64,000 nucleotides of DNA from NCBI GenBank assembly GCA_035527895.1, contig DATKZQ010000017.1:3588-67587 (forward strand), in the 5' to 3' direction. Positions within the stretch are counted from its first letter, which is position 1. Each line of letters starts with the position of its first letter. Source of the stretch: Desulfatiglandales bacterium. GTDB lineage: Bacteria > Desulfobacterota > DSM-4660 > Desulfatiglandales > B25-G16. A program made the translations under genes and the position numbers. The notes beneath the pieces were generated by a model. The model worked only from the letters and a program-made list of their open reading frames with translations. It ran no database searches and had not been told where the DNA came from. Shown here one piece after another: positions 2,756 through 48,102 of the stretch.

Positions 2756-2810
2756 TCCGTGGACCGTTCAAGAATCCCTGTCGGAGAGAATTAAACGAGG
2801 AGGTAAAGAT

Positions 2811-7724: not shown

Positions 7725-7860
7725 ATCAATACGATTAAAGTACGGCAGATCAAAACATATGTCAATATTTTTATATGGCTATTTATATGGCTTTGTTATC
7801 CATAACGTAAAGATCACCTGCCTCTATGGAGCGTCAGCGGAATAAAGGTCAGGTGGATTG

Positions 7861-8220: not shown

Positions 8221-8288
8221 TTTCATATGCGTGTTTGGTTCCGGCTTGTCCGGGTTAGGTTGTGCCCGTGTTCTTCATCAGCTTCCTT

Positions 8289-9590: not shown

Positions 9591-10065
9591 ATTGACCCCT
9601 CCAGATTCTCACGATATCAAAGATGAACACGCAGCACTCAAGCAGGCAACAGACTGCCACGGCATAAGCGACCGGGTAGAAGGGGAGCTGGATGGTGGGT
9701 GAAACTTCCCCTGATGCACGAAACGCAGCCCCGACGCTGAAAAGGTTAACCCCTATGAACGCAAAGAGAATCAGGCACAGCACGCGAGTCATGCTGTTGA
9801 CCACGTTTTTTACCCTCTCGGAGAATTTCTGCAAAAGGAATTCCATGTATACATGCCCTCTGTCGAGGGAGACTTGTGGGATACCGAAGCCGATCACGAC
9901 CGCCATGAGTAGAGCCACGATTTCATAAGTCCCGATGATGGGATGACCACCCGCTCTTAAGAGCACATCGGCAACGGTCATAAGCATCATAACGGTGACT
10001 GATATACCCGCGATGATGTTTAGGAGTTTGCTGACGAATCGCAAGATCTTAAATTGGCTTGCCAT
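9583..10065 (-). CDS. dctQ: TRAP transporter small permease (DctQ family)
   Basis: A 160-aa protein with 4 TM segments, lying between dctP and dctM. Confidence 0.8.
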   Translation of the reverse strand: MASQFKILRFVSKLLNIIAGISVTVMMLMTVADVLLRAGGHPIIGTYEIVALLMAVVIGFGIPQVSLDRGHVYMEFLLQKFSERVKNVVNSMTRVLCLILFAFIGVNLFSVGAAFRASGEVSPTIQLPFYPVAYAVAVCCLLECCVFIFDIVRIWRGQYD

Positions 10066-11241: not shown

Positions 11242-11435
11242 CTCAGGCCTCCTTTTAAGGGTTATAATTTTGTAAAACATCTTCACCCAGGTTATCGCTC
11301 TTTTCAATCGAAACCAGTTCTACCAACTGGTGCCCATATATACCTCGGAGCGCTATGCCAAGGGGCACAACTCATGGAAGCATTTTGGCTGCCATGTTTG
11401 GTATTGTCAAGTTCTTTTGTGTAAATTTTTTATAG

Positions 11436-11591
11436 GCTGCACTCCTTGGGCGCGACAAATGCTCTTTTGTGCATCTGATGTTCCAATGGGCCGGAGTCAG
11501 ACTCCATCCCGAGGATAGGCGGAGCATGAGTGACGCATCGAGGGGGAATGGAGAACCCCGCAAAGTTATAATCTTATGTCCCCGATTTACC
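11436..11591 (-). repeat. Duplicated promoter-region module, copy B
   Basis: It aligns with 7033..7186 and lies ~230 nt upstream of dctP. Confidence 0.8.
11470..11485 (-). promoter_or_regulatory. Sigma-54 (-24/-12) promoter candidate for the dctPQM operon
   Basis: The minus strand reads TGGAACATCAGATGCA, with GG and GC at consensus spacing. It is homologous to the copy A element. Confidence 0.5.
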
Positions 11592-11743
11592 GAAACCTTG
11601 AATAAAAGGTTAGCTCAAAGTGTCAAAACCAACTTCACCATCCGGCGAGCTTGGGCCGTCCGCTTGAACCGCTTAGCCTGCGGTTCACGTGCGAAAACCT
11701 TGGCGTCGAGCAGCTTGAGTATGTACCCAAATGCCGTCATCAC

Positions 11744-12258
<515 letters not shown>

Positions 12259-13240
12259 TGCGCTCACTATTCTGGCGAGCACTACCCGCTCGCCCTCGAA
12301 GATATTTATCTGGCGACCACGAGGCTTGAGATAGCGCGTTCGGAAGTCCGGCGCCCATACCTCTTCAACAAGTTCGAGACCTCTTTGGGTAAGATACTCA
12401 GCCAACCCAGACGGAGCAAGGCCGAATATCCAGGGCGTTCCGCCTCGATGGGCGGAAGAGACGAGCTTCTGATCTGCTTTAGAGCGGGCAGTCCCGTCAA
12501 TAATACCTTGATGGATGTAGGTGAATACGATCTCGCTTCCTCCTGCCGCAGCGCCGCACATGTATCTGAACGTCCTATCCACTGCTTCTGCAGCAAGGTA
12601 TTGGGTAACACCCTCCCAAATGAAAAACGACTTGAGACCCTTACGAAATCCTGCCGCTGTCATTACGTCTTCGATATCCTGGCGGTCAAAGTCAATGGGA
12701 ACGAAGCTGACGTGTGCGGGCAATTTGCCGACCACCTTCTCCACGAATGTTTGCTTCAAGCGCTGCGTCGAAGGCAGGTCTAATTCAAAGACGTGAACCC
12801 GCTCGATATTGGTGATACGATAAGCACGGGCATCAAATCCCGCCCCCAGAATCACGACCTGTGCAATTCCTGCCCCCAACGCATCACAAAGCATATCGTC
12901 AATATAACGCGTCCGGCAATACAGGCTCCCAACAAAGCCGGGGCCAACCTGTTCCGTTAGGGCAACTAGAGCGTGGCGAAGACCTGGAAGCAGGAAGACT
13001 TTCCACAAGCCTGGCATAAGACCGCGACTGAAACGATCATTGAAAAGACGCTCCTGTTCGGGATGGTATGATTCAACGGCTCTGAGAAACGCCAACCTCA
13101 GAGCAGGCACCTTGGCGATTGCACTGCCTTCTTTCATTACTGTCTCTCCTTCAAAGAGCATCAAAGGGACACTGCCTAACGCCGTGGCTAAGCGGCTGCC
13201 AAAGGAGCGCAGCGGATTTTCAGTCCGACTTGAGCTGCTT

Positions 13241-13583
13241 GTGTACGCCCGGCATGGGCGTGAACCTTTCGGCCCTGAGCCTCTCGGCCATGAGCTCGAG
13301 GCCGAATAGCTTTTTGGGTGTAAGTCCCCTGTATGTGAGCTCTGTTAGTGTAAATATACACTGACACAAATACGAGCCGAATACAAGTCGAAGATCCCGA
13401 GCTGGTCGGGAGAGCGGAACCGCGAGGGACCATCTGAAGCTTGCCTGCCTCACGCAGGGAAGGGAAGTCAGGGTGCAAAGTTACTGCGGGAGGTGACGCA
13501 GGTTTTAAAGCAACTTATGAACACAACTCTTTTGCTGTTTAAGCTTTTTGGCAAGTTGTTTCAGAACAAAAGTCCCGTTTTAC
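13241..13583 (+). repeat. Structured ~350-bp repeat, full copy 2
   Basis: It starts at GTGTACGCCC like copy 1 and carries a ~15-nt internal deletion relative to copy 1. Confidence 0.7.
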
Positions 13584-13720
13584 CGTCCCTCTCACCGACC
13601 GTTAAATTATTTTGGTCAGCGTTAAAATCCCTTGACTCAAGGGTTGACGATGGGAATATTGTAAGTTGAGGTGCAATGATACAGAAGACCAGTACTTAAC
13701 AATTGAAGAGGAGGGTGGAG

Positions 13721-14251: not shown

Positions 14252-14382
14252 TCAAAATGCGACCATCAGGTCTAAGTATGCCTGATAATCCTCATCGCTG
14301 AAGAAGGTTTCCTGCCGACGATTTCCACGTTGGGTTATGTGTTGGGAAAACCCGGAGCCACTACTCGCGCAATTCTTACCAT
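14252..14382 (-). pseudogene. N-terminal remnant of an IS200/IS605-type Y1 (RayT-like) transposase, frameshifted and truncated
   Basis: MVRIARVVAPGFP is followed, after a frameshift, by QHITQRGNRRQETFFSDEDYQAYLDLMVAF*. The remnant is flanked by the 13-bp inverted repeat GGGACACCATACC (14196-14208 / 14424-14436). Confidence 0.5.
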
Positions 14383-14463
14383 GAAATAGAATCATACGTG
14401 TACTGTTACTATGTCAAGAAATGGGTATGGTGTCCCTGGATTTCATTCTCTTTGCCCGAACTC

Positions 14464-14647: not shown

Positions 14648-16000
14648 GGTAGTGTAAAATATATTGTGTAAATTCTGAGAGGGTAGAAAAAAGGGCGCTT
14701 TTCCTTTAAAAGGGTTTTAAGCAATAACCTATAAAGAAAGGAGAAGCACCCATGAAAGTAGAAATTAGCGTACCAGAAATAGTAGCAATTTTCAAGGAAA
14801 TTCAAGAGCAACCTGAGAGAATTTTCGAGATGATCCGGGTAGAGATCAGAGAGAACGTTGGTGAATATCTGTCCAAGTTGATGGATATGGAGCGTACCCA
14901 ATTTCTTGAGCGGGAATGGTATGAACATGGTCAGGGAGAGGTGAATCATCGCAATGGTTCCTATCCTCGTAACTTCACATTAAAAGGTATTGGAGAGGTA
15001 AAGGTTGAGGTGCCAAGGGATCGGAAGGGTGAGTTTACAACCCAGGTCATTCCCCGAAGTAAACGGTATGAGAATGAGCTTCGGCAAGATTTGAGTGTTA
15101 TGTTTTTAACCGGTGTGAGCACACGGACCCTATCGATGATTTCTACAAGACTGATAGGCTCTAAGATATCTCCAACGGAGATAAGTAACGCCAATAAAGA
15201 GTTGATAGATGCGGTGGAGAAATGGAGGACCCGTGATCTATCCGGGGAAACGATCAAATACATATTTTTGGACGGTGTTAACTTTGATATGCGCATAGAT
15301 GGGAGCATAGAGAAGGTGCCCGTGCTGGTGGCTATTGGAGTTACAGAAACAGGGCAAAAACTGGTGTTAGGTTTCCAGGCAGGGGATAAGGAATCCGCTC
15401 CCACCTGGCGGGAGTTTTTCAAGGATCTGAAGGGAAGAGGTTTGGATGGCAGCACCATGGTCTTGGGTGTGATGGATGGATTGCCGGGACTTGAGAAGGT
15501 GTTTAAGGAAGAATTCCCAAAAGCCAAAGTCCAGAGATGCCAGGTCCATGTGGCAAGAAATGTCCTGGCCAAGGTTCCTAAGAAGTTGAAAAAGGCTGTG
15601 GCCGATGATATGCGGTCCATTTTCTATGCCTCTTCAAAATCGAAAGCTATGGAGTTCTTTGACATTTTCAAAGACAGATGGCAGCGAGATCTTCCCTCTG
15701 CCGTTAAATGCCTGGAGAACTCTTTAGAAGCGTGTCTCACATTTTTTATCTGTCCAGAGGAAGAGTGGATCTCTTTAAGGACCACGAACATTATCGAACG
15801 TCTCAACAAGGAATTTAAACGCAGAACAAAGCCTATGGAGATTGTAGCTGGGGAGAATGCCTGCTATACCCTCCTGGCTTTTATCTGCTTAAAGATGGAA
15901 TTACATTGGAAGTCAAACCCTATAGGAAAAGTGCGTAAGAACCTTCCCTTCCTCAAAGAATTGGAAGATAAAAAATTCACACAAAAAATTTGACAGTACC
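14648..16000 (+). mobile_element. IS256-family insertion sequence (1353 bp)
   Basis: The terminal inverted repeats GGTAGTGTAAAATATATTGTGTAAATT and GGTACTGTCAAATTTTTTGTGTGAATT (reverse complement of the right end) match at 22/27 positions. They bracket a single transposase gene. Confidence 0.85.
14752..15993 (+). CDS. IS256 family (Mutator-type) transposase
   Basis: A 413-aa protein containing GSYPRNFTLKGIGEVKVEVPRDRKGEF, IFLDGV, VQRCQVHVARNV and TTNIIERLNKEFKRRTK. Confidence 0.9.
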   Translation: MKVEISVPEIVAIFKEIQEQPERIFEMIRVEIRENVGEYLSKLMDMERTQFLEREWYEHGQGEVNHRNGSYPRNFTLKGIGEVKVEVPRDRKGEFTTQVIPRSKRYENELRQDLSVMFLTGVSTRTLSMISTRLIGSKISPTEISNANKELIDAVEKWRTRDLSGETIKYIFLDGVNFDMRIDGSIEKVPVLVAIGVTETGQKLVLGFQAGDKESAPTWREFFKDLKGRGLDGSTMVLGVMDGLPGLEKVFKEEFPKAKVQRCQVHVARNVLAKVPKKLKKAVADDMRSIFYASSKSKAMEFFDIFKDRWQRDLPSAVKCLENSLEACLTFFICPEEEWISLRTTNIIERLNKEFKRRTKPMEIVAGENACYTLLAFICLKMELHWKSNPIGKVRKNLPFLKELEDKKFTQKI

Positions 16001-16669
16001 CACAAACTGATACACTGGCTCATTGCTTGCGGCCTTGTCTTGCCATTTCGCTTCAAGAATATAGTGCTCCCCATCGTATTTTACGGCACCGTCGATCTGC
16101 TCGCCGTTTACCCGAAAGGCATCGGTGACTTCCAAACCGGACAGCTTCGCGAGGTTAGCAAGAATGGATTCAAGCGAATATCCACGTCTTTGAGGTGCGG
16201 TCTTCCCGGCGTGCAAGTCGAGGAACTCTTTTAACAGCTCCCCAGTTGAGATGTCGGGTTGACGCAGCACAACCTCAGCAGCATTTCTTTTCTCACGCTC
16301 GGCCTTGATCTTCCCGTCTCTTATCTCCTGCAGCTGTCTCAAGTGGTCAAGGCAGGTCTGTGCCTTTCCCCGGTCCAGCTTTCGGAGCTTGTCAAAGTAA
16401 TACGGGTCAAAATGCGACCAATTCAGCAAAGACTGAAGCATGGCCCGAAATTGGCCCAACCCGCCTGTAGCCTTTGAGGATAGATGAACGAACATGAGGT
16501 CCACCATCCTGGACCGGCTGAGGTTTTCCTCCTTGAACTGAACTATGACCTTGAGGTCGTCTTTGGTGCAGTCATGGTCTGCAAAGAAGTCATAGATGAC
16601 TTGCTTTGGCCACATTACTGCCAAAATGCAGTCCTTCATGCATCCCTTGATGTCAGCTGGAAACTTCAT
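16001..16669 (-). pseudogene. Cassette 5: PD-(D/E)xK (Mrr-type) nuclease-domain protein, 3' end replaced by the IS256 insertion
   Basis: ...RGYSLESILANLAKLSGLEVTDAFRVNGEQIDGAVKYDGEHYILEAKWQDK... carries a D...E-x-K motif. The last 7 codons (GTVKFFV*) are IS sequence. Confidence 0.6.
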
Positions 16670-16693
16670 CTGATCTCAACCATTTTTCTTGCC

Positions 16694-16754
16694 TGCCAAC
16701 GCCGCTCTTCAGCGGGCGCGGCTTTTTGCGATCCGCTGAAAAAGCATGTTAGCA
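16694..16754 (-). other. attC site of cassette 4
   Basis: The minus strand reads TGCTAAC-(imperfect palindrome CTTTTTCAGCGG..CCGCTGAAGAG)-GTTGGCA. It starts 5 nt after the ORF stop. Confidence 0.65.
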
Positions 16755-16758
16755 GATT

Positions 16759-17376
16759 CTATGTTTTTCCCTTTGCCAGTTTAGTACGCAATTTTTCATG
16801 TTGGCATTTAAGATCCTCATATAATGGATATAAGGACTGCTCTGAATGATCTAAGGCTCTAATTATCTCTCCTGGCAAGGACCCTGCGAGAAACCGATCC
16901 CATATATTTACGAACTCAATTAACGCTGGATAATGCTTTGCTGTGGAGGGTTCGGCAAGATGAATATTTTTTCTAAATATTTCTATCATCTTATGATATG
17001 CGGGGATCGTTTCAGTTTCGAGATATTCGTTATCGTAATCAATGATTTTATCAAACTTTTCACCCTTTTGTTGAGTTAGCTTTTGGAGTTCTGTGGGATT
17101 ACCTTCATACCTCTCACACATCTCATGCCAGACTTTTCCAGCGGTACTACCTATTTTTACACGTACTTTTCCAATTGTTTCGATTTCTTTTCTCAAAGAA
17201 AGAAGTGGGGAATAAAAATCAGTGAGCTGTTCGGATAGGAATTTATGACGACGCCCGATTTTCTCTCTTCTGGAAGTCAGTAAGGCACCGACAGCAACAC
17301 CGCAAAGCCCCGCAATGGCAGGGACTGTAATGGAGATGCCCCACTGCAATAAACTCACGGAATTAGGTTCAGCCAT
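16759..17376 (-). CDS. Cassette 4: hypothetical protein with an N-terminal TM anchor
   Basis: A 205-aa protein with one hydrophobic segment (ISITVPAIAGLCGVAVGALL) and a helical rest. No family was recognised. Confidence 0.5.
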   Translation of the reverse strand: MAEPNSVSLLQWGISITVPAIAGLCGVAVGALLTSRREKIGRRHKFLSEQLTDFYSPLLSLRKEIETIGKVRVKIGSTAGKVWHEMCERYEGNPTELQKLTQQKGEKFDKIIDYDNEYLETETIPAYHKMIEIFRKNIHLAEPSTAKHYPALIEFVNIWDRFLAGSLPGEIIRALDHSEQSLYPLYEDLKCQHEKLRTKLAKGKT

Positions 17377-17395
17377 AGGGCTTTTCTCCCGCTTA

Positions 17396-17455
17396 TGCTA
17401 ACGTTGCTAATCAGCCGCGCGGCTTTTTGCGTCGGCTGCATTAGCCTTGTTAGGC
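17396..17455 (-). other. attC site of cassette 3
   Basis: The minus strand reads GCCTAAC-(GCTAATGCAGCCG..CGGCTGATTAGC, with one unpaired G)-GTTAGCA. The central part is similar to the cassette 4 attC. Confidence 0.7.
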
Positions 17456-17496
17456 GATTCAAATTAAAAGGGCATCTAAGATTTCAATCCTCTAAT

Positions 17497-18645
17497 CTAA
17501 TCAAATACCCAATTAACAAGTCTATCCTTATTTACTGTGAATACACCGCCTTCATAATATAGTGTCTTTGCATAATTTCTGATAAGTTCTTGTTGTTTCA
17601 GGGTAAGATTTAACCACCATTTTTCTGCAAAGTAAGTGTTCTCACAATTTACAAAACAGTACTGAACAAAGATATCACCTTTCTCTTCATTTGGTAATTT
17701 ATCGAAACTATCTACCACATTACTTGGGTCTTGTTCGTCTTTTAACCATACAAAAATAATTGCTCCTCCATCTTCTGTATTCATAACCGAATGCGAAAGC
17801 ATTTCTGCATCCATATTTAGATCCCACATATCGAGAAGCTTATTTCCAGCAAAATCGAATTCACATTGAAAAACGCTTGAACTTACAACATCTATATCTC
17901 CTTGAAAGAAAAAACATTTGCTTTCAAATGTATCAATTTTTCTTTGAATAATGGCCGATTCGAATTTTTCCCTCAAACTATCGTTTTCTTCCAAAGATTT
18001 TTTTTGGCCCTCGATACTTTTAGTTATAGAAAGCTGCACATTTATTTGGCGATCAAGATCAAAACCTCTATCAATGACGGTGCGTTGAAATTCTAGAGAT
18101 TCGATAAGCGCCTGTTTTCTATATAATTCATTACAGACATTTCGAAACGCATGTAAAACACAATGCCAATGTTCTCCTGAAAATTCTCCTTTTTCTATTG
18201 GGGCGAACAAGCTAGTGTCGTGTCCTGAACAATAACCTGGAAAAATTGAAGCCTTCCTCCAACCAATCCTTGATGCCTTTACTTCGCCATTATTTGGATC
18301 GGGCTCAAAATTCATTAAATGGCCAGTATCATCTATTAGTTGTTTTAAGGGTCCTTTCCGCTGAATTGTGTGTGAATCTATTACCTTTCCGCTACAAGAG
18401 CTTGTTGAAGCTAATGGATGCATGCAGCCACGCTTACGCCAAAAAACTTTTCGTTGGAGATTTTGAAGTTGACCTAGCGTATAGGGTTTTTCTTGTTCCC
18501 TTAATCTATGGCATTTTTTATATTTTCTTCCAGAACCACACCAACAAGGTTCGTAATGCTTTCTATCTCTAAGAGCATTTGCGACGAATGGATGATTATC
18601 TTCAACTTCTCTTACTTTAAATGGATGTGGTGGTAGTTTTATCAT
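17497..18645 (-). CDS. Cassette 3: SEC-C motif-containing protein of unknown function
   Basis: An N-terminal CWCGSGRKYKKCH (SEC-C metal-binding motif) is followed by CSGKVIDSHTIQ and GYCSGHDTSLF. The gene is visibly AT-rich. Confidence 0.6.
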   Translation of the reverse strand: MIKLPPHPFKVREVEDNHPFVANALRDRKHYEPCWCGSGRKYKKCHRLREQEKPYTLGQLQNLQRKVFWRKRGCMHPLASTSSCSGKVIDSHTIQRKGPLKQLIDDTGHLMNFEPDPNNGEVKASRIGWRKASIFPGYCSGHDTSLFAPIEKGEFSGEHWHCVLHAFRNVCNELYRKQALIESLEFQRTVIDRGFDLDRQINVQLSITKSIEGQKKSLEENDSLREKFESAIIQRKIDTFESKCFFFQGDIDVVSSSVFQCEFDFAGNKLLDMWDLNMDAEMLSHSVMNTEDGGAIIFVWLKDEQDPSNVVDSFDKLPNEEKGDIFVQYCFVNCENTYFAEKWWLNLTLKQQELIRNYAKTLYYEGGVFTVNKDRLVNWVFD

Positions 18646-18721
18646 TCTTCCTAAATTTAGAGTGCTATTTTTTCCTACGTTATCGGCTCAAGGAACCCCT
18701 ATATAGCAATCTAATCATTAC

Positions 18722-18792
18722 GCCTAACGTAATTTTCACCTGCTGGTGTGAAGCGAAGCGAAACACCAGTCTGGTGGAAAAACTGGTTGGGC
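18722..18792 (-). other. attC site of cassette 2
   Basis: The minus strand reads GCCCAAC-(TTTTCCACCAGACTGGTGT..ACACCAGCAGGTGAAAA, with unpaired bases)-GTTAGGC. Confidence 0.7.
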
Positions 18793-18834
18793 GTCATTGC
18801 CCCATAGTACGTTGTTCTCTGCAGAGCTGTAACA

Positions 18835-19575
18835 CTATAGATCTACAATCCCATTACGAAAGATGTATTCGCGCCCCTCATCGGTAAGCTGCACAATCGC
18901 ATGGCTTCGAAAGACAAGCCCCTGGTCGCTAGCTTCGGCAAAATATCTTTCGAAAGACAACCTGTGAAGACTGGAGTTTTTGACTGCTGTGTCAAAGAAT
19001 ATCGTACCTTTTCGAGATTGATTGGCTGTAGCAGCAATTGCCTCCATAACTGATCGAATACCATCACTGGTGCGGTCTGGTCGAGAACTCTGCATAGGCG
19101 CGAACGGCGCCGTGCCAATCGGTGGCTTCTCGTAGAGAGGCGCGTTCAGTAGGGTCCTAAGAAGATCGTCAAAACTGTATTCAATCTCATCGTCATTTGA
19201 GAAGTTTATGTAGAGCTTCGATTGCATAAAAGTTGGGAGCTTATTAGCTCCCTTTTGTCGAATTATGGGAATTACCTTATTGTTGTTGATCCTTGATAGC
19301 AGTGAGGAAGTCATTATCATCTTTTCGTATCCTACACCGCCTGCTCCGGCGTTCGCTTTTTCAACATACACTTCGGTACATATCATTAGCACGAAGTCAC
19401 AAGAAGATAGTTGTGTCTCCATAAAGTGTGGTAGGTCATCACCAGGGCGCAAATCCCACTGATCCAATACTGCATCAACACCTCGGTTACGAAGGGTTGT
19501 CGCGAAATCAAGAACCCATGCTTTGTGCTCCGCAGAATCGTGGGAGTATGAAATGAAAACGACTGGTGGATTCAT
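18835..19575 (-). CDS. Cassette 2: TIR-like domain protein with a C-terminal putative winged-helix domain
   Basis: VVFISYSHDSAEHKAWVLDFATTLRNRGVDAVLDQWDLRPGDDLPHFME...FVLMICTEVYVEKANAGAGGVGYE is a TIR/SEFIR-like pattern. Confidence 0.7.
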   Translation of the reverse strand: MNPPVVFISYSHDSAEHKAWVLDFATTLRNRGVDAVLDQWDLRPGDDLPHFMETQLSSCDFVLMICTEVYVEKANAGAGGVGYEKMIMTSSLLSRINNNKVIPIIRQKGANKLPTFMQSKLYINFSNDDEIEYSFDDLLRTLLNAPLYEKPPIGTAPFAPMQSSRPDRTSDGIRSVMEAIAATANQSRKGTIFFDTAVKNSSLHRLSFERYFAEASDQGLVFRSHAIVQLTDEGREYIFRNGIVDL

Positions 19576-19621
19576 ATCGAAGCTCCTAAGCTATTTCTTG
19601 TGGAAATCACTGTAATATGTC

Positions 19622-19677
19622 GCCCAACATGAAGTTCATCGGGAGCGTAAGCGATCCGGTGAAACGATTTGTTGGGC
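19622..19677 (-). other. attC site of cassette 1
   Basis: GCCCAAC...GTTGGGC flanks an imperfect palindrome, 30 nt after the ORF stop. Confidence 0.6.
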
Positions 19678-19706
19678 GGTCCTTTGCCCATTTTCTTTAC
19701 TCAGTA

Positions 19707-20330
19707 TCAGGGCTGTCCCCCTTCATTTCTGTTTTGCCAGTGAATCGGAATGTTAGGGTGCTCACCCACGAAATCCGGGTTTATGATGCAAATAGAGTCC
19801 GGCGATTGGGTCCGGTCTTTCAAGGTCGTTGGCACTCGCATATAGGCAATCGCATTCTCCAACCGGAGTTCTCGCTCTCTGACAGCAACCCGATTTGGAA
19901 GATCAAGCATCCAGCCATACTGGCTATACAGCATGCCCTCTATGTGAATGGTACTCTGGTCTTGAAAAGCAATTCTTACTACATGGTTCCGGGCCTCTTG
20001 GTTTACGCATGTAGATTTAAGTCGCGGAAGCACATCACTGCGTCCGAGCGAAAACCTCATTGCTAAGGCCTCTCCGTGCCATGGCAGGCCAAGTGCAAAA
20101 GTCCGAATTGCATCAATTATGGTCTGCGAAAATATTTGTTTAATAATTGAATATCCCACGCCCTGATTTTTCAGAAGATAGGCCAGAGCGCCAATTGATA
20201 TTTTTGCCAAGCCTCTGCAATATGTTTCCTGCTCGTGGGGTCTTAACCCGACCGGAAATGCGATTGCATATACACTTTCGGGAGGTATTTGTCTATTTGT
20301 CTCTGTCGTAGATATATCGAAAAGCTGCAT
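19707..20330 (-). CDS. Cassette 1, ORF B: hypothetical protein (partner or frameshifted C-terminal part of the HNH protein)
   Basis: A 207-aa ORF that overlaps ORF A by 38 nt in another frame. There is no attC between the two ORFs. Confidence 0.45.
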   Translation of the reverse strand: MQLFDISTTETNRQIPPESVYAIAFPVGLRPHEQETYCRGLAKISIGALAYLLKNQGVGYSIIKQIFSQTIIDAIRTFALGLPWHGEALAMRFSLGRSDVLPRLKSTCVNQEARNHVVRIAFQDQSTIHIEGMLYSQYGWMLDLPNRVAVRERELRLENAIAYMRVPTTLKDRTQSPDSICIINPDFVGEHPNIPIHWQNRNEGGQP

Positions 20331-20616
20331 CTACCCGTGGTTCTAAGCCTTCAAAATAGGAAAATTGAAACGGTCTAAGAGCACCATCAGCCAATAGGGC
20401 TTCTCCCGATCGTTTCAATGCTCTGGTGTTCTCGAACCTTACCAAGTACAGCATATCCCTCACTTCATTATCGAAGACTGAATTCGATCGGGTATTACTC
20501 GCCTCGCATACCGGCAGCCATTGATTTTCAGGGCCGTCAATAGACCTAGGTATGAAATGCTCTTGCGTCAACGAATCGTCATGATCTTCATTGCAAAGGA
20601 AACAGTAATAGCTCAT
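20293..20616 (-). CDS. Cassette 1, ORF A: HNH endonuclease-domain protein
   Basis: MSYYCFLCNEDHDDSLTQEHFIPRSIDGPENQWLPVCEASNTRSNS fits the pattern CxxC...EH...C..N. ATG 20616 lies 13 nt after the GTTGGGC junction. Confidence 0.6.
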   Translation of the reverse strand: MSYYCFLCNEDHDDSLTQEHFIPRSIDGPENQWLPVCEASNTRSNSVFDNEVRDMLYLVRFENTRALKRSGEALLADGALRPFQFSYFEGLEPRVDAAFRYIYDRDK

Positions 20617-20628
20617 TTGTTTCTGTTC

Positions 20629-20700
20629 GCCCAACCATTGATTCTTAGGCGAATTTGCCTGGTATTGGGCTATTGGGGCATAAGACAGGCAAATTTGCCT
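20629..20700. other. Candidate attI region
   Basis: GTTGGGC on the minus strand (20635-20629) lies at the start of cassette 1. Two copies of the palindrome AGGC(G/A)AATTTGCCT (20647-20660, 20687-20700) lie between it and intI. Confidence 0.45.
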
Positions 20701-20761
20701 GTTGACAATATTCAATATTTTGCCTCCCATCTGGCGGAGCTCTACAGAAACGGAGGGAGCC

Positions 20762-20980
20762 ATGGCACGCAGACTCCTCGATGAAATGCACGAGATGATG
20801 AGGCGTCGCCACTATTCGATACGTACCGAGCAGAGCTACTGTGCGTGGGTAAAGCGCTATGTGCACTTTCATAAGATGCGGAGCAGGGCGGGCCTTCGGA
20901 ACGGCGAACAAAAGATCGAAGCGTTCCTCACTCATCTTGCCATAGACCTCCGTTTGACTCCTGGAAAATGTTGTCTCTAG
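20762..20980 (+). pseudogene. intI: Integron integrase remnant (N-terminal ~65-70 residues only)
   Basis: MARRLLDEMHEMMRRRHYSIRTEQSYCAWVKRYVHFHKMRSRAGLRNGEQKIEAFLTHLAI matches the IntI N-terminal SAM-like domain (HYSxRTEQxY..W...F..FH, EAFLxHLA). The frame then ends. A GGAGGGAG RBS is present. Confidence 0.7.
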
Positions 20981-21338
20981 TTTTTGAAAGGCCTAACTAA
21001 TTACCGATGGATCAGCGGTGGTTCAGAGTGGGCAATCAGCTGAGCAGGAGAGCGTAAGTGGTGCTTTGAGCTCTGCGTGAGCAAGAGAAGTAGAATCGCG
21101 GTTTCACTTGAAAAGTGGCGCCACTAGATCAGATTAGCTAAGAATGATGTCTCTTTTACCATATCTTATCAGTATCGGCAAGAGGGAATGGGCTTGTATG
21201 AATAACGACCTCAAGTTTTAGTAGGATCTGCCGATAGAAGAAATTGGAATAACGGGGATATCGGATTCCAAAGGCAACTAACTGCGATAGTTGTGCGTAG
21301 TTGTCAAACTCAGAGAACAATAGCTCGGGGAGCTTGAA

Positions 21339-21557
21339 TTGGGAGTATATGAGGAAATGATGGGGACTGATAAAGAAGTAATGAATGCCGACGAGGTTTC
21401 CAGTTGGCTTCGTATCCCCAAATCAACCCTCTATAAGCTGTGTTGCGAGGGCCAAATCCCCTGTGCCAAGATCGGGAAACACTGGAGGTTTGACAGGGCA
21501 ATGGTCAAATCATGGTTTCAAAAGAGAGTTCGAGAAACAATAGCACAGAATTACTGA
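21339..21557 (+). CDS. Excisionase-family helix-turn-helix DNA-binding protein
   Basis: ADEVSSWLRIPKSTLYKLCCEGQIPCAKIGKHWRFDRAMVKSWF is an HTH_17/excisionase pattern. Confidence 0.65.
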   Translation: MGVYEEMMGTDKEVMNADEVSSWLRIPKSTLYKLCCEGQIPCAKIGKHWRFDRAMVKSWFQKRVRETIAQNY

Positions 21558-21649
21558 AATAAGCGGATGGGAACGGTTTCATGAACACAGGACACGTGAG
21601 GATTTCCGTGTAACTATTTGAAAACTTAACCGCAGGAGAACAACGATCA

Positions 21650-22135
21650 ATGGAAAGATCTCTGAAGGTAATACTTGAACCCACATGGGATGAAATAGAA
21701 AAGGCCAGGAACAGAAGCAGCGATTTCCTGAATGCCCATGGGTTATCAAATGATGCTGTGCACGCGCTTACGATGGTGGTGAGTGAACTGATCGAGAACA
21801 GTGTCAAATATGGCAAGTTCGCAGCACCGGAAAGTAAGGTAGTCGTAACGATCGATATTGAAGAAAGCATGATCTCTGTTGAAGTAGTCAACCCCGTCGA
21901 TGAAACAGCATACAAGCATTTGAAGAACCTGGATAAGACAATTCAATGGATCAGGGGACATCAAGACCCCTTTGAGGCCTATATAGAAAGACTGAGGGAG
22001 GTCTCTAGAAGACCACTGGATGATAAGGAAAGCGGCCTGGGCCTTGTCAGAATATCATATGAGGGAAGAGCTATCCTCGATTTTTTTCTTGGTGAAAATG
22101 ACCTGTTAAGCGTGTCGGCTGTTTCACCCTATTAG
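21650..22135 (+). CDS. GHKL-type anti-sigma-factor-like Ser/Thr kinase (SiaB/RsbW-like)
   Basis: N-box VVSELIENSVKYG and G-box DDKESGLGLVRI in a 161-aa protein. Confidence 0.7.
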   Translation: MERSLKVILEPTWDEIEKARNRSSDFLNAHGLSNDAVHALTMVVSELIENSVKYGKFAAPESKVVVTIDIEESMISVEVVNPVDETAYKHLKNLDKTIQWIRGHQDPFEAYIERLREVSRRPLDDKESGLGLVRISYEGRAILDFFLGENDLLSVSAVSPY

Positions 22136-22148
22136 AAAGGCTAAAGAG

Positions 22149-22526
22149 ATGACTGTGCGAGAGAAAGAGACATTTGTTAGCAATCTGCTGAAATTAGAAC
22201 TCGAGGAAAAGAAAGACTCTATCAATATCAGCTGGTCTGGAAAGAGCATAGATCGTGAGCCAGGGAAATTTATCACCCCAATTCTCGTCAACGCTATCAG
22301 GAGAAGCAGCGGGCTTAATAAAAAGATCATATTGGACTTTCGGGAGCTGGCTTATATGAATTCATCATCTATCACACCAGTCATAAAGATCCTTGAAAGG
22401 GCCAAAAGAGGGAGAACTCAAATCAGGGTTGTCTATAGAAAATCTCTGAAATGGCAAGATCTCTCCTTTTCTGCCTTAGAGATATTTAAAACCAAAGACC
22501 GCAGAGTGGAAATCAAGGGATTGTAA
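22149..22526 (+). CDS. SiaC-like (DUF1987-type) partner-switch phosphoprotein
   Basis: ISWSGKSIDREPGKFITPILVNAI...ILDFRELAYMNSSSITPVIKILERA follows the SiaC pattern (GDSYPEN..F..VIDW...L.L.L.YLNTSSIK..DIL) in a 125-aa protein. Confidence 0.6.
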   Translation: MTVREKETFVSNLLKLELEEKKDSINISWSGKSIDREPGKFITPILVNAIRRSSGLNKKIILDFRELAYMNSSSITPVIKILERAKRGRTQIRVVYRKSLKWQDLSFSALEIFKTKDRRVEIKGL

Positions 22527-22532
22527 TACAGC

Positions 22533-23927
22533 ATGCACCAAGATGCCATAAACCTAACGGCTGATCTGATCACAGGAAAAGAGAAGATACCCGTCGATGT
22601 CACCTACGCATCCAGATATTCTCTGCTGGTCCGTTACCCGGATTCACGGGCTTACGGGGATGGAGCACGTTTCTCCAAGCTCGTGATCCATCTCACCGGA
22701 GAAGATTGTGAGCTGGGTCCGTGCAGGGTCATGTCAGAACCCAACATCGATGGCTATGCAGGCAGGCTCGTTTTCCTTGAGGATGTTTATGACCTCGAAA
22801 ACCTGTTTCTTAACAACAGGATAGTCAAGCTGCAAAACGCTTTTGTTAACCTGCCGTTGGTCCTGGCTTACAAAGAGAGGATCTGCAAGGCATTTAAGGA
22901 GTATACCGCCAATCTCACGTATGATTTGAGCGTCTATAAGGGTCTCTTTGATAGCCTGGATCTGGAATTGAGTGCCGAGCCTGAGAGCACAAGAGAATCG
23001 GTCAGGAGAGCCATCATCGATACCGAGGGCAAGAAGTTCATGCGGTTCCTTGATGAGAGGCTGAAGGAACTAGGGGGCATAGTCGGTTCGTTCAACAGGG
23101 AAGAGCATGCGCAGCACGGGTTTTATTTCAGAAAACAACTGTGGAACTATATCCTCTGTTCTCCACTTCTGAAACGAACCAATCTGAAGCCAAGAGGATA
23201 CGCTGGAGATTCGGTGATGATGCAAATGATTTATGCAAACGAGCTTCAGGGTGATTCCACCTTTTCGAAGCTCATGCATAAGCATCCATTGGATCACTCT
23301 GCCGCTCGGGCTGTACGAAGCAGAAGACATGTTATAGCGAACATGGCCCGCCGTATCAGGGAATATGATACCGGTATAACGGACGGAAGATTGAAGGTCT
23401 TGTCTGTTGCCAGCGGGTCTGCAATTGAAATCGACGACATACTGGTTACTGCCGGGGATTGTGAAAAATATCATTTTGCCCTGCTCGATCAAGACCGACA
23501 GGCCCTGATCGAAGCGGCGGAGTGTATTAACCGGATTGAGAAGAAGTTAGAAGCCAAAATCAAGGTAGACTACATAAACGAATCCGTACGAACCATGCTT
23601 GCGTCGCCACAATTGAAGGGCAGGTGGGGGGAATTCGATTTCATTTATTCGATGGGGCTTTTTGATTATCTCACTCCTCGGGTGGCGTCGGCCGTGCTCC
23701 GTAAGCTTTTCCAATTGCTGAAGCCCGGTGGGGAGATGATCGCCGGAAATTTCCATACATCAAATCCGAGCAAATACTATATGGAGTATTGGGCAGACTG
23801 GGTTCTCTACCATCGAACGGAACAAGAGTTCGGAGATCTGTTAGGCAATGCTGCCTCAGCGGAAATCGATATCTTTTTCGATGATACAGAGAGTCAAATG
23901 TTTCTTCACATAAGAAAGACAGGATAG
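22533..23927 (+). CDS. Fusion protein: N-terminal domain of unknown function plus a class I SAM-dependent methyltransferase (PhcB-like architecture)
   Basis: The SAM motifs VLSVASGSAIE, LLDQD, FDFIYSMGLFDYL and LLKPGGEMIAGNF lie in the C-terminal half of a 464-aa protein. The gene starts 7 nt after the SiaC-like gene. Confidence 0.65.
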   Translation: MHQDAINLTADLITGKEKIPVDVTYASRYSLLVRYPDSRAYGDGARFSKLVIHLTGEDCELGPCRVMSEPNIDGYAGRLVFLEDVYDLENLFLNNRIVKLQNAFVNLPLVLAYKERICKAFKEYTANLTYDLSVYKGLFDSLDLELSAEPESTRESVRRAIIDTEGKKFMRFLDERLKELGGIVGSFNREEHAQHGFYFRKQLWNYILCSPLLKRTNLKPRGYAGDSVMMQMIYANELQGDSTFSKLMHKHPLDHSAARAVRSRRHVIANMARRIREYDTGITDGRLKVLSVASGSAIEIDDILVTAGDCEKYHFALLDQDRQALIEAAECINRIEKKLEAKIKVDYINESVRTMLASPQLKGRWGEFDFIYSMGLFDYLTPRVASAVLRKLFQLLKPGGEMIAGNFHTSNPSKYYMEYWADWVLYHRTEQEFGDLLGNAASAEIDIFFDDTESQMFLHIRKTG

Positions 23928-24138
23928 CGATGACATGCGCTGTGCATACTGACCCCTTTTTTCTTAACTGGAGGGTGTTTTTGTCCGTCTTTGGCCGGTG
24001 AGTCATGAAACGTTCTTTGAATCGACACGTTTGACACCTATGGAGGCCTTTCACGGAGGGACAATAAATGCGGTTTCCGATGTTTATCACCTTATCTGAG
24101 TTATAGAAGGATGGCTAACGTTTAAACCCGGGATTGAG

Positions 24139-25509
24139 ATGAGCCTCATTGCTAACACGACAGAGCAGTTCGATTATGATGCCGATCAATTCGAAAGCTA
24201 CCTCAGCAGCATCATCCATGAGTGGCTGAAAACTCTCACTATTCTGGCATTCCTAATGGTTCCGGCATTCCTGATACTGGATTATTTCATAATGCCTAAG
24301 GAGCTTCTCCAGCGATTTGTTATTTACAGATCCATTTCTACACTCATCGTGATCATCCAATATGCCATTGTTCGTCAAACCAGAGCAAGCAGGCTCTCTT
24401 ACATCCACGGGTATGTTGTTTCAGTGAATATTGGAGGAATGATAGCGCTGATGACAGTTGATCTGGGAGGGTTTAATTCCAGTTATTACGCGGGCCTGAA
24501 TCTCGTTATTATTGGGGTAAATCTCTGGATACCATGGAAGACCCTCCACTCAGCCCTCAATAGCATCATAGTTATTTCCTTGTATATCTTATTGAATGTC
24601 ATTGCAGGTCATCCATATGCTCATTCGCCCCTCATCAATAACCTCTTTTTTCTGTTCTCAACAGCAATCATTGCCGTGAGCATAAACCATGTGAAACACA
24701 AACTTGTCAAACAGGAGTTTTACCTGCTTGTTGAGTTGAAAAAGGCCCGGGATGCGCTCTGGAGTGAGATGGAACTGGCAAAACGGATACAAACAGCACT
24801 TTTGCCGGACAGGGAAAAGGTTAAGGGCTTTGAAATTGCCGCTACCATGGTCCCGGCCAAAGAGGTAGGTGGCGATTATTACGATATCATCGAAACCCCA
24901 ACGGGGGATAAATGGGTTACCATTGGTGACGTGTCGGGCCATGGGGTTGATTCAGGGCTGATTATGATGATGGCACAAACAAGTATTCTTTCGACGGTAC
25001 ATAGTTCAACGGACTGTAGGCCATCAGCGGTTCTCCAATCGGTAAACTCGATTCTGAGAGAGAATATTTCGAGGTTGGGATCCGACCACTACATGACCAT
25101 GATGGCCATCCGGTTCAATGAATCACAAATGACCCTGGCCGGAAAACACCAAGATATCATAATTCATAGATCTGCATTGAATAAAACCGAAACCATCCCT
25201 ACAAAAGGAACGTGGCTGGGAATCGATGAAGATATCGGGAAATACTTGGATGATGTTTCGGTGACCATAGAGGAAGGCGATCTCATACTGCTATTCACCG
25301 ATGGCATCACCGAGGCTACAAACAGGAATGGGGAGATGTATGGACAGGTTCGCCTCGAACAGGCCCTGAATGAATACGCAGATTTGCCCGTCCGTAAGAT
25401 CCTCGACAAGGTAATCGAAGACGTAACGGTCTTTCAGGAAGAACAACTGGATGATATGACCTTGGTAGTAATCAAGAAAGGCGATCCGAGTTCAACCTAC
25501 TGGCATTAG
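24139..25509 (+). CDS. Membrane-anchored PP2C/SpoIIE-family Ser/Thr phosphatase (SiaA-like)
   Basis: A ~190-aa multi-TM N-terminus is followed by EVGGDYYDI, GDVSGHGVDSGLIMMMAQT, FTDGITEA and DDMTLVVIK. Confidence 0.8.
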   Translation: MSLIANTTEQFDYDADQFESYLSSIIHEWLKTLTILAFLMVPAFLILDYFIMPKELLQRFVIYRSISTLIVIIQYAIVRQTRASRLSYIHGYVVSVNIGGMIALMTVDLGGFNSSYYAGLNLVIIGVNLWIPWKTLHSALNSIIVISLYILLNVIAGHPYAHSPLINNLFFLFSTAIIAVSINHVKHKLVKQEFYLLVELKKARDALWSEMELAKRIQTALLPDREKVKGFEIAATMVPAKEVGGDYYDIIETPTGDKWVTIGDVSGHGVDSGLIMMMAQTSILSTVHSSTDCRPSAVLQSVNSILRENISRLGSDHYMTMMAIRFNESQMTLAGKHQDIIIHRSALNKTETIPTKGTWLGIDEDIGKYLDDVSVTIEEGDLILLFTDGITEATNRNGEMYGQVRLEQALNEYADLPVRKILDKVIEDVTVFQEEQLDDMTLVVIKKGDPSSTYWH

Positions 25510-25538
25510 GCATTTCTAACCATTTAAAGCAGGTAGAC

Positions 25539-27842
25539 ATGACGGTTGTTTCCTTTTCAGCAAATGAAATAAAGGCAAACCTGCTGACGCTGTCCTTTCC
25601 CAAAGAACTTGAGCAGGCCTTTCTTGATGACTATTTTGAAAAATCGTTACGACATGTGCGCATAGCCTTGCTTTTGGGTTTCTTTTTTTACGGGATTTTC
25701 GGAATTCTCGACGCATGGCTCGTTCCAGACGTGAAGGAGACACTATGGCTTATTCGCTATGCCATTTTTTTTCCTTTTCTGCTTGGGGTATTCCTGTTCT
25801 CCTACTCCATTCATTTCAAGAAATTCATGCAGCTATCGATTGCAGGTGTAATCTTGGTAGCTGGACTGGGCATCATCGCGATGATCCTGATTGCTCCGGA
25901 TCCGGGGAGTTATCTGTATTACGCGGGCTTGATTCTGATCTTTCTTTTTGGATACACCTTTTTCAAACTCCGATTCATCTGGGCAACCGTCACAGGCTGG
26001 ACGCTCGTGATTGCCTACGAAATCTCAGCTATATGGTTGACTCAGACCCCCATTCCCATTCTGATTAACAACAACTTCTTCTTCCTTGCAGGCAATGTAA
26101 TCGGGATGTTTGCCTGTTACTCCATCGAGTTCTATTCACGTAAGGACTTCATCCAGGCCCGTCAACTGCAAGCGGAGAAGAAAAAGGTCACTGACGCCAA
26201 CCGAGAACTGGAGGAAAGAGTTGAGGAACGGACCGCACAACTCACGAGAACAAATGAGGAACTCAGGCAAGAGATAGAAGAACGCAGACGGGCACAGGAA
26301 GCACTGCACGAGAGCCAGAAACGTTACCGCGACCTCTTCGAGCAGTCCAGGGATCCAATCTTTATTAATTCGCGAGAGGGCAAACTTATTGACGTTAACC
26401 AGTCCTTTCTGGATCTGCTTGGCTATACCAAATCAGAGATAGGAAATCTCAAATCTCAAGAGACATATGCTAACCCGGATGACCGGTCCAGATTTCAGCA
26501 CGAGATAGAACAAAAGGGATCTGCCACGGACTTTGAGTTGAAATTAAGGAAGAAGGATGGCACAGAGATAGATTGCCTGCTCACTGCGACTGTGCGGAAG
26601 GCTGAAGATGGGGCAATTCTGGGATACCAGGGAATCATACGTGACATCACTGAGCACAAGCGCGCGGAAGAGGAAAGAAAGAAGCTTGAAGTCCAGCTGG
26701 CGCGAGCCCAAAGGATGGAGGCTATGGGTACGCTAGCTGGGGGTGTGGCACACGATTTCAACAATATCCTTGCAGCTATCGTCGGCTATGTGGAGCTTTC
26801 AATGCTGGATGTCGTCGAAGACACCAAAGTGAAGCACAATCTGGAAGAAGTGCTAAGGGCCGGCAAGCGGGCGAAAGACCTGGTGAACCAGATTCTTGCC
26901 TTCAGCCGGCAAAGCCGAAATGAGCTGAAACCCGTGGAGATTACCCCGGTTGTGAAAGAGGCCTTAAAGCTCTTGAGGGCCTCTTTACCTACCACTATTG
27001 AGATCCGCCACCACGTGGAGCCTGATACCGGGACTATAGAGGCGGATCCTACCCAGATCCATCAGGTTCTCATGAACCTTTGCACCAATGCGGCCCATGC
27101 CATGAGTGAGGAAGGCGGGCTGTTGGAGGTGAGTGTCACAAAGGTTGCTATAGATGCCTCTGCTGCACCGCTGAATTTAGATATAGATTCGGGACCGTAT
27201 CTGAAGATGTCCGTACGTGATACCGGTCATGGGATGACTTCTAAGGTATTGGAAAGGATCTTCGATCCCTATTTTACCACCAAGGAGAAGGGCAAGGGAA
27301 CCGGACTGGGATTGGCGGTGGTACACGGCATTGTGAAGAGCCACAAGGGCGGCATTGGTGTGGAGAGTGAGCCCGGGAGTGGAACATGCTTTCATGTATA
27401 CTTTCCGAGGATAGAGCAAAAGAAAGAGCTGACCGACACCGAGACTGTCCAACCCTTTCCCACAGGGCACGAGTGTGTGCTTTTCGTAGACGATGAGCAG
27501 GATCTGGTGCAGATAGCGGCGCAGATGTTATCTCATCTCGGGTATGAGGTCACAACAAGAATGAGCAGCAACGAGGCCTTGGAGTTGTTCCGCGTAAACC
27601 CAGAGCGGTTCGATCTGGTTATTACCGACATGACCATGCCGAATATGACGGGAGATACGCTGTCCAAAGAACTCATGAAGATTCGCCGCGACATCCCAAT
27701 TATACTGTGCACCGGATTCAGTGAACGTATCAGTGAGGAGAAGGCAAAGGCTATAGGGATTAAGGAATTCGTCATGAAACCCCTTGCGATGGGCGATCTT
27801 GCCAAGCGAGTACGAAAGGTGCTGGACAACGAGCGCTTTTAA
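25539..27842 (+). CDS. Hybrid sensor histidine kinase (multi-TM sensor, coiled coil, PAS, HisKA, HATPase, receiver)
   Basis: H-box GGVAHDFNNIL, N-box LMNLCTNAAHAM, G-boxes VRDTGHGM and GTGLGLAVV, and a receiver domain (VLFVDDE...LVITDMTMPNMTG). Confidence 0.9.
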   Translation: MTVVSFSANEIKANLLTLSFPKELEQAFLDDYFEKSLRHVRIALLLGFFFYGIFGILDAWLVPDVKETLWLIRYAIFFPFLLGVFLFSYSIHFKKFMQLSIAGVILVAGLGIIAMILIAPDPGSYLYYAGLILIFLFGYTFFKLRFIWATVTGWTLVIAYEISAIWLTQTPIPILINNNFFFLAGNVIGMFACYSIEFYSRKDFIQARQLQAEKKKVTDANRELEERVEERTAQLTRTNEELRQEIEERRRAQEALHESQKRYRDLFEQSRDPIFINSREGKLIDVNQSFLDLLGYTKSEIGNLKSQETYANPDDRSRFQHEIEQKGSATDFELKLRKKDGTEIDCLLTATVRKAEDGAILGYQGIIRDITEHKRAEEERKKLEVQLARAQRMEAMGTLAGGVAHDFNNILAAIVGYVELSMLDVVEDTKVKHNLEEVLRAGKRAKDLVNQILAFSRQSRNELKPVEITPVVKEALKLLRASLPTTIEIRHHVEPDTGTIEADPTQIHQVLMNLCTNAAHAMSEEGGLLEVSVTKVAIDASAAPLNLDIDSGPYLKMSVRDTGHGMTSKVLERIFDPYFTTKEKGKGTGLGLAVVHGIVKSHKGGIGVESEPGSGTCFHVYFPRIEQKKELTDTETVQPFPTGHECVLFVDDEQDLVQIAAQMLSHLGYEVTTRMSSNEALELFRVNPERFDLVITDMTMPNMTGDTLSKELMKIRRDIPIILCTGFSERISEEKAKAIGIKEFVMKPLAMGDLAKRVRKVLDNERF

Positions 27843-27948
27843 GCCCAGCTGCATTTTGTCAGTCATCCCCATAGCTCAAACGCGGTTTCTCTTACCTCCA
27901 TTTTGCCGTTTACCCGTACCTTTCCTGCTGCCGCGGCCTGTGAAGTAC

Positions 27949-48051: not shown

Positions 48052-48102
48052 ATGGGCCCTTAGCACGGTTTTGGTTAATCCCAAAAGGCGTCATAATTTA
48101 GA

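Follow-up and report, generated by a model that had tools for sequence, protein, structure and literature searches.

We analyzed a 64,000-nt stretch of DNA (the window) from a Desulfatiglandales bacterium (assembly GCA_035527895.1, contig DATKZQ010000017.1, positions 3,588 to 67,587), in which a preliminary description had proposed a degenerate integron. The coordinates of the features are listed in Table 1. The parts of the integron that appear to survive are an attI site with two accessory palindromes, the ribosome-binding site and codons 1 to ~63–65 of the integron-integrase gene (intI), four complete gene cassettes with a canonical attC site at the end of each, a fifth cassette cut by an insertion sequence (IS) of the IS256 family, and decayed attC remnants past the IS. 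The locus is very probably a sedentary chromosomal integron remnant of a Desulfobacterota-type uncultured bacterium, the intI of which was destroyed by deletion. Integrase deletion is a well-known decay route of integrons.

The attC sites were searched with a covariance model (R1) built from six training sites, none of them from the window: four sites from the array of an unrelated metagenomic integron (L002; related and comparison loci carry the prefix L) and the attC of the class 1 cassettes aadA2 and aac(6')-IIc, which were taken from plasmids retrieved with IntI1. The structure was set by hand (R'' paired with R', a spacer left unpaired, and L'' paired with L' around two canonical bulges), and the whole 64 kb was searched on both strands with the filters off. 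R1 gave exactly five matches at E ≤ 0.0016, all on the minus strand, which is the cassette strand, and each directly downstream of a minus-strand open reading frame (ORF) or within the array. The four main sites scored 21.6–28.9 bits (E 1e-5 to 1.6e-3), 13–20 bits above the same sites on the plus strand. With 13.7 bits (E 0.33), the next match was to a palindromic site read on its other strand, and the best unrelated match scored 13.5 bits. Class 1 attC sites outside the training set scored 32.8 bits for aac(6')-Ib4, 25.9 for lnu(F), 25.5 for arr-3, and 18.5 for dfrA14, with the class 1 matches sitting at the ends of annotated cassette genes; because the scores in the window fall in this range, the window sites score like genuine attC. 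At the other loci, R1 matches at E ≤ 0.05 were found in the vicinity of intI, the majority of them upstream on the cassette strand. The four imperfect palindromes of the preliminary description were thus all accepted by a model that had not seen them.

The architecture of the four sites was also as described: they lie between consecutive minus-strand ORFs and have AAC...GTT cores. The strict core consensus for R''/R' (RYYYAAC/GTTRRRY) fits two of the four, and the other two deviate at 1–2 outer positions. One extra unpaired base is present in the R''-proximal arm of the cassette strand at every site (4/4, from reading the sequences and from the cmsearch alignments), which bears out the unpaired bases noted earlier, and the central sequence CGCGGCTTTTTGCG is indeed common to two of the sites. 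As single strands, the four sites fold with z values of −2.1 to −5.4 against shuffled sequence. Each attC starts 4–42 nt past a stop codon, and the following ATG lies 20–76 nt further downstream. Sequence and predicted structure support the assignment of the four sites as attC.

The fifth R1 match lies to the left of the IS. It retains canonical L boxes with two bulged bases, its R'' contains a 1-nt insertion (GCGTAcAC), and its hairpin fold is lost (z +0.6 and +1.6). A 28-nt segment that overlaps its R'' end (13238–13265) is matched exactly in the array of L008. The preliminary description had five cassettes cut by an IS; the cut is confirmed, but the array does not end at the IS, because this decayed attC lies beyond it. 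A second model that included the window sites (R2) added only one marginal site, which lies at the end of the second copy of a 360-nt repeat, and the array may once have extended to this point. Rfam gave no match in the whole window at the gathering thresholds and only a sub-threshold match to STnc380 between 7 and 21.4 kb in E-value mode. A regex-and-folding attC scanner of our own was dropped since it missed one window site and most class 1 attC. A repeat at 12158–12259 (copies at 13484–13585 and 8120–8221) was considered as a second type of attC and rejected for its wrong core polarity and a fold z of −0.45.

The ORF that diverges from the array matched IntI and nothing else of its kind. 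In NCBIfam, only two integron-integrase models were matched, TIGR02249 being aligned over positions 1–58 of 315 (E 4.4e-14); Pfam gave Phage_int_SAM_4 (1.8e-14), and the only PDB match at E ≤ 1 was VchIntIA 2A3V (IntI4), residues 4–62, with an E value of 6e-9. As the preliminary description had supposed, the stump is thus the N-terminus of an IntI; it is not that of a generic tyrosine recombinase or phage integrase. The tail of the ORF, (RLTP)GKCCL before the stop codon, is not clearly IntI sequence, and the stump scored 52.6 bits against a TIGR02249 cut-off of 265. A tblastn search with full-length IntI gave a single match in the window, 20768–20962, and nothing beyond residue ~65. Since the match is confined to this segment, ~255 codons are gone and there is no second integrase in the 64 kb, which agrees with the earlier statement that the integrase is lost. 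The stump is a gene remnant, not an integrase. Full-length relatives found via the stump (for example L006, from Candidatus Electrothrix, and L009) scored 445–486 bits against the same cut-off, and they carry the IntI-specific ALERKYP...WQYVFP segment when the translations are inspected by eye.

Two other readings of the stump homologues were rejected. All 66 homologues were short, which might have indicated a stand-alone family of small proteins, but this was largely a database effect: metagenome proteins are fragmentary, an exhaustive search returned mostly short representatives and a few of ~300 aa, and the DNA loci show full-length relatives. The differing tails RRMSRFIPTATDL and QVRCPFLFLP did not represent independent events; they are two reading frames of one L001-type DNA. 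In regards to the filler to the right of the stump, the same position in L001 (a complete metagenome-assembled genome, CP070752.1) is occupied by an 826-bp segment (10191–11016) with a GNAT acetyltransferase gene in cassette orientation, around which no attC was detected. The filler aligned significantly neither as the 3' end of intI nor as a remnant of this GNAT segment.

Table 1. Features of the integron locus in the window, with the scores of the attC covariance models R1 and R2.
Feature	Coordinates	Strand	Details
attC-like site, marginal	7800-7868	-	R2 14.3 bits, E 0.34; fold z -2.7
fifth attC, decayed, left of IS	13174-13248	-	R1 24.4 bits, E 2.4e-4
IS256-family element	14648-16000	+	1353 bp; transposase gene 14752-15993
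cassette 5, truncated	16001-16699	-	ORF 16001-16669; partial Mrr_cat (PD-(D/E)xK) nuclease domain
attC of cassette 4	16694-16754	-	R1 28.9 bits, E 1.1e-5
cassette 4	16700-17401	-	ORF 16762-17376, 205 aa; no family
attC of cassette 3	17396-17455	-	R1 21.6 bits (match 17397-17455), E 1.6e-3; R2 32 bits
cassette 3	17402-18727	-	ORF 17500-18645, 382 aa; Pfam SEC-C motif only, 2.1e-8
attC of cassette 2	18722-18792	-	R1 25.0 bits
cassette 2	18728-19627	-	ORF 18838-19575, 246 aa; TIR/SEFIR, bSEFIR-like
attC of cassette 1	19622-19677	-	R1 26.8 bits, E 4.9e-5
cassette 1	19628-20634	-	1007 bp; two overlapping ORFs
cassette 1 ORF b	19710-20330	-	207 aa; no family
cassette 1 ORF a	20296-20616	-	107 aa; weak HNH_5, 22 bits against 27.5-bit cut-off
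attI and integrase-promoter region	20629-20761	-	core GTTGGGC 20635 to 20629 on cassette strand
palindrome 1, AGGCGAATTTGCCT	20647-20660		overlaps candidate L box
palindrome 2, AGGCAAATTTGCCT	20687-20700		40 bp from palindrome 1, just upstream of TTGACA hexamer
intI stump ORF	20762-20980	+	72 codons; IntI homology ~codons 1-63/65 (to 20951-20962)
filler	20952-21010		59 bp between end of conserved stump module and conserved region upstream of HTH_17 gene

The array was described as ending at a GTTGGGC core 13 nt before the first cassette ATG. The core is present (plus strand GCCCAAC, 20629–20635), but its distance from the ATG at 20616 is 12 nt. The candidate attI around it was supported by pairwise comparisons, in all of which the similarity among the window, L001, L004, L007, L014, L015, and L016 begins exactly at the AAC 20633–20635, while the cassette side is unrelated. 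Because a start of similarity at AAC/GTT is the expected signature of recombination between G and TT, the crossover is placed between G20635 and T20634. Upstream of the GTTGGGC, and separated from its GTT by 8 nt, is a candidate L box, GCCTAAG. The two palindromes reported beside the core were confirmed; the pattern has these two matches in the whole window against 0.04 expected by chance. Equivalents of palindrome 1 (CAGG..CCTG) occupy the same place in L014, L015, L016, L007, and L002, and L007 and L002 retain the 40-bp spacing, which is measured between the palindrome centres. The palindromes of the clade change in sequence but stay symmetric, as in GGCAAATTTGCC, GGCAGATCTGCC, and GGTCAAATTGACC. 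The motif AACCAYTKATT adjoining the core is common to more distant integrons of the clade. By analogy with attI1, the palindromes are putative accessory integrase-binding sites or a putative operator of the integrase promoter.

The layout AACCAYTKATT followed by two CAGG..CCTG palindromes ~40 bp apart was also observed upstream of intI in L002, L007, L008, L017–L023, and L025, and changes in the palindromes of the clade are compensated such that the symmetry is preserved. In L001, the public record contains a run of ~100 N (9770–9870) exactly at the attI core and the junction with the first cassette, so the cassette content of this relative is unreadable.

The cassettes look defence-related from their predicted proteins. 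The cassette 2 protein matched Pfam TIR_2 (4.7e-22) and SEFIR (4.8e-14), as well as PADLOC bSEFIR with an E value of 2.6e-84, although the last match covers only positions 35–232 of 412 in the profile. In the truncated cassette 5, the Mrr_cat match covers profile positions 6–74 of 115, and the HNH and Mrr matches are near or below the Pfam cut-offs. No attC was detected by the covariance models between the two ORFs of cassette 1, and this cassette thus carries two genes. The cassette ORFs were stated to be more AT-rich than the flanking genes; this holds for cassettes 3 and 4 (G+C content 0.33–0.44) but not for cassettes 1 and 2 (0.45–0.48), which are similar to the flanks. Defence genes in integron cassettes are already established (bioRxiv 10.1101/2024.07.02.601719). 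The locus resembles those integrons in its small promoterless cassettes with bSEFIR/TIR-like, partial Mrr-like, and weakly HNH-like proteins; in contrast to them, its cassette functions are predicted, its bSEFIR-like protein covers about half of the PADLOC profile, and its HNH and Mrr matches are weak.

The outermost cassette is truncated by the IS256 element, as claimed: its ORF is cut at 16001, where the IS ends at 16000, and the last 7 codons of the ORF come from IS sequence. The transposase, a DDE enzyme of the IS256/Mutator type, matched NCBIfam transpos_IS256 (NF033543) with 341.5 bits against a cut-off of 150 and Pfam Transposase_mut with an E value of 2e-91, and the terminal inverted repeats (14648–14674 and 15974–16000, 27 nt) match at 22 of 27 positions. 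The target-site duplication of 8–9 bp that is made by the IS256 family was not found, the flanks being AAATAAAT and CACAAACT, and the left flank of the IS is the start of a different small ORF rather than the rest of the Mrr-like gene. The missing duplication is consistent with a later rearrangement. Because the duplication is absent and the flanks are unrelated, the IS insertion was presumably followed by an adjacent deletion or rearrangement, which would have removed the end of cassette 5 and probably more cassettes. The degenerate-integron interpretation of the preliminary description is supported, both of the refuting tests that it named having favoured it, with three refinements: the two genes of the first cassette, the IS without a target duplication, and the remnants on the left side of this element.

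The sequence on that side of the IS contains a Usp gene, encoded on the opposite strand, a non-coding repeat of 360 nt, and the decayed attC, together with an LCM methyltransferase gene, a glyoxalase gene, and an operon for a TRAP transporter. The distal part of the array is eroded and old, and no precise end can be assigned to it. The repeat is a ~360-nt non-coding segment present at 13241–13585 and 7861–8221 with 85–97% identity; each copy leads into an identical degenerate attC R'' (GCGTAcAC), but the L and R' parts are not the same in the two. A third copy of its first ~100 nt (12158–12259) follows the LCM methyltransferase gene, and part of it matches the cassette array of L008 (396–499); it belongs to no Rfam family. 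A 141-nt direct repeat (7046–7186 and 11451–11591, 89% identical) lies upstream of a flavin-reductase-like gene and of the TRAP dctP gene and may be a shared leader or promoter. The 47-codon ORF 14252–14395 on the minus strand (..HITQRGNRRQETFFSDEDYQAYL..) may resemble the N-terminus of an IS200/RayT-type Y1 transposase, but Pfam gave no match, and the reading as a fragment of such an element was set aside.

The right flank is syntenic with L001, a member of the Deltaproteobacteria, at about 92% identity. The region 21339–27843 encodes an HTH_17 protein, an anti-sigma-like kinase with HATPase_c_2, a STAS/SiaC-like protein, a methyltransferase-like protein of 464 aa, a MASE8-SpoIIE phosphatase, and a PAS histidine kinase; judged from these domains, the conserved cluster, for which the identity to L001 is about 91%, looks like a partner-switching regulatory module. 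L001 has the same intI stump, and no attC was detectable next to it. The array of the window, with the IS in the same place, was found 100% identical in contigs from at least 5 samples; the identical contigs fit a frozen array, but they represent a single clone. Two further repeats were observed in the window: an inverted repeat of 169 nt (33537–33705 and 62898–63066, 91% complementary) with arms 29 kb apart, which may delimit a segment that is mobile or invertible, and a direct repeat of 293 nt (47760–48052 and 49846–50138, 82% identical) with copies 2 kb apart. At the unrelated loci L002, L003, and L004, a dihydroxy-acid dehydratase (ILVD_EDD) gene lies near intI (11483–13213, 2219–3949, and 10858–12561, respectively). 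The Xanthomonas integron is adjacent to ilvD, and the likeness may be a coincidence.

We compared the truncation of intI among related loci (the window, L001, L004, L007, L014–L016, L022, L024, L026, and L032). Twelve events could be separated, using DNA-level searches able to detect any remnant longer than ~40 codons, and in 8 of the 12 the truncation ends at codons 59–78 of a gene of ~320 codons. The conserved stump module ends at 20951 in the window; relative to this position, it ends at +4 nt in L001 and L014, +9 nt in L004, and −1 nt in L007, and no more than 13 bp separate the end-points of the window, L001, L004, and L007. The deletion in L007 is internal and fuses ...HLAIDL with GHKD..TTMVYTH of the C-terminus. 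L004, L015, and L016 are one lineage, with stumps 98.9–99.5% identical and nested deletions that have their right-hand end in common; the L015 form arose via a deletion between two GGCAAT repeats in an L016-like intI, which had been truncated before. These deletions are ordinary illegitimate deletions. A mobile element as the cause of the truncation in L004 was rejected, since the downstream genes are housekeeping genes and the L015 deletion shows GGCAAT microhomology.

The stump is conserved at least as well as the flanking housekeeping genes: 93.7% identity against about 91.5% for the flanks between the window and L001, and about 99% against 90–94% among L004, L015, and L016. From their attI crossovers (L004 5003, L015 355, and L016 112), the modules of these three loci are 96–99% identical, and the sequence past the GTT is unrelated, which implies either that cassettes were exchanged after the truncation, for which an integrase would be needed in trans, or that the module and its array were replaced as one unit. 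The clustered end-points, the stump conservation, and the different cassettes at the GTT among loci that share a truncated ancestor hint at selective retention. It is a tentative and rather doubtful proposal that attI and the first ~190 nt of intI are selectively retained in this clade, outlive the integrase, and keep acting as a platform for cassette capture and expression that is serviced in trans. Such a module could persist via a cassette promoter or operators or via a functional N-terminal peptide. L005, which appeared to combine a stump with a full intI, was not informative here: a perfect 355-nt tandem duplication of the 5' end of intI (422–731) directly precedes the full-length gene (777–1739), is 100% identical, and is either recent or an assembly artefact.

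We weighed three alternatives to the reading of the locus as an inactive integron remnant. The platform may instead be alive, with its attI and attC used by an integron integrase encoded elsewhere, as a satellite site of capture and expression serviced in trans. IntI1 is able to act on chromosomal cassettes in trans, the four proximal attC are structurally intact, and L015 and L016 share a derived truncated-intI junction while they and L004 are unrelated just past the GTT crossover. However, a search limited to the 64-kb window, which does not extend to the rest of the genome, gave no second intI, every recovered copy of the window array is identical, and the cassette differences of the sister lineage could stem from homologous replacement of the module and the array. 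On balance, we regard this alternative as possible but unlikely. The stump might also be a functional small protein of ~64 residues, such as one that binds DNA and regulates attI or the palindromes. The start codon, the GGAGG ribosome-binding site, and an intact ORF are kept in 7 of 7 loci, the ratio of non-synonymous to synonymous substitution rates between lineages is 0.15–0.28 as in the flanking genes, conservation at least equals that of the neighbours, and the deletion end-points cluster just past codon ~60. Nevertheless, only 61 of the 85 positions in the profile of the SAM-like domain are represented in the stump, the nearly invariant Y26 is replaced in L001, and L001 and L014, the only pair that certainly shares a truncation, differ by 3 synonymous and 6 non-synonymous changes, with no sign of constraint. 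In L004, L015, and L016, conservation extends to the synonymous sites, a sign of recent common ancestry and not of protein-level selection; recent recombinational spread fits better than such selection. A functional stump thus seems quite improbable.

The last alternative is that there is no integron at all: the hairpins would be ordinary terminators or REP-like repeats (repetitive extragenic palindromes), and the stump would derive from a generic phage or Xer-type tyrosine recombinase. Palindromes are common between convergently packed genes, and the stump is short. However, the attC model matches are strand-specific and no other window sequence comes near their scores; the attC architecture is recognisable in the cores, the spacers, and the bulged bases; the stump matches only IntI models and an IntI structure; and the relatives diverge exactly at the GTT triplet. 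The attC model, the profile and structure searches with the stump, and this divergence have already effectively refuted the alternative, and we consider it scarcely credible. Several points also weigh against the remnant interpretation itself. The attC covariance model is a small surrogate with six training sequences. A sigma-70-type promoter was sought in the attI and stump region on both strands and none was found, so cassette expression is hypothetical. The notion of a frozen array would derive from one clonal population, all of the contigs being identical. Furthermore, L004, L015, and L016 share the truncation of intI and yet differ in the first cassette, and platforms of this kind, to judge from their sequences, may still exchange cassettes.

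With the locus read as an inactive integron remnant, it is unable by itself to excise or capture cassettes because the catalytic domain is missing. The array would thereby be a frozen gene set, barring an integron integrase supplied from elsewhere in the genome, and transcription of the cassettes would need a promoter on the attI and stump side. The locus resembles a class 1 or Vibrio-type platform minus the enzyme. It shares with the class 1 platform (intI1-attI1-cassette promoter Pc) the divergent orientation of intI and the cassettes, a simple site in which inverted L and R boxes flank G/TT, two further upstream repeats at positions analogous to DR1 and DR2, and attC sites that are matched by a model whose training set was in part of class 1. 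Unlike in class 1, the accessory repeats of the window are palindromes of 14–16 bp that lie 40 bp apart and not direct repeats, neither a Pc nor a LexA-type box was recognised, and no transposon carries the platform.

Cury et al. (2016, PMC4889954) defined complete integrons, In0, and clusters of attC sites lacking integron integrases (CALIN), and reported that about a quarter of the complete integrons contained IS elements and that an intI pseudogene lay close to 15 of the 279 CALINs. The locus has five attC by the surrogate model and no IntI catalytic domain in the 64 kb, which agrees with the CALIN definition (at least two attC and no integron integrase nearby) and not with that of a complete integron (intI and at least one attC), as attC are present and the integrase is absent. 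By the published definitions of IntegronFinder, the locus would therefore count as a CALIN adjoining an intI pseudogene. Like other CALINs, it has at least two attC and no nearby match to the IntI C-terminal or PF00589 profiles, and about five attC is a typical CALIN size; in contrast to them, it has kept an N-terminal piece of intI and an attI that can be recognised, which makes the origin by intI loss explicit. The pseudogene screen of IntegronFinder uses C-terminal profiles and would miss the stump of the window. In Xanthomonas, intI has been made non-functional by a frameshift, a stop codon, or a large deletion in integrons with stable arrays (bioRxiv 10.1101/2025.06.18.660453, summarising Gillings et al.). 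Those integrons and the present one are alike in the chromosomal location, the large intI deletion, the retained array and attI, and an array that is identical within the lineage, whereas the window comes from another phylum (a Desulfobacterota-type metagenomic lineage), retains only ~65 intI codons, and has its array interrupted by an IS256-family element.

The locus is a clean, well-delimited case of integron decay, combining an integrase deletion with an IS hit, from a phylum that has been little studied. It is of use in annotation but unsurprising, and only the attI architecture and the apparent retention of attI and the stump exceed routine annotation. The comparison defines the attI architecture of the clade (the GTT crossover, AACCAYTKATT, and two phased palindromes), which is a concrete target for binding studies. 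If the clustering of the truncation end-points reflects selection, orphan attI platforms would be maintained elements and not debris, which would bear on the origin of many integrase-less CALINs and on whether they remain active.

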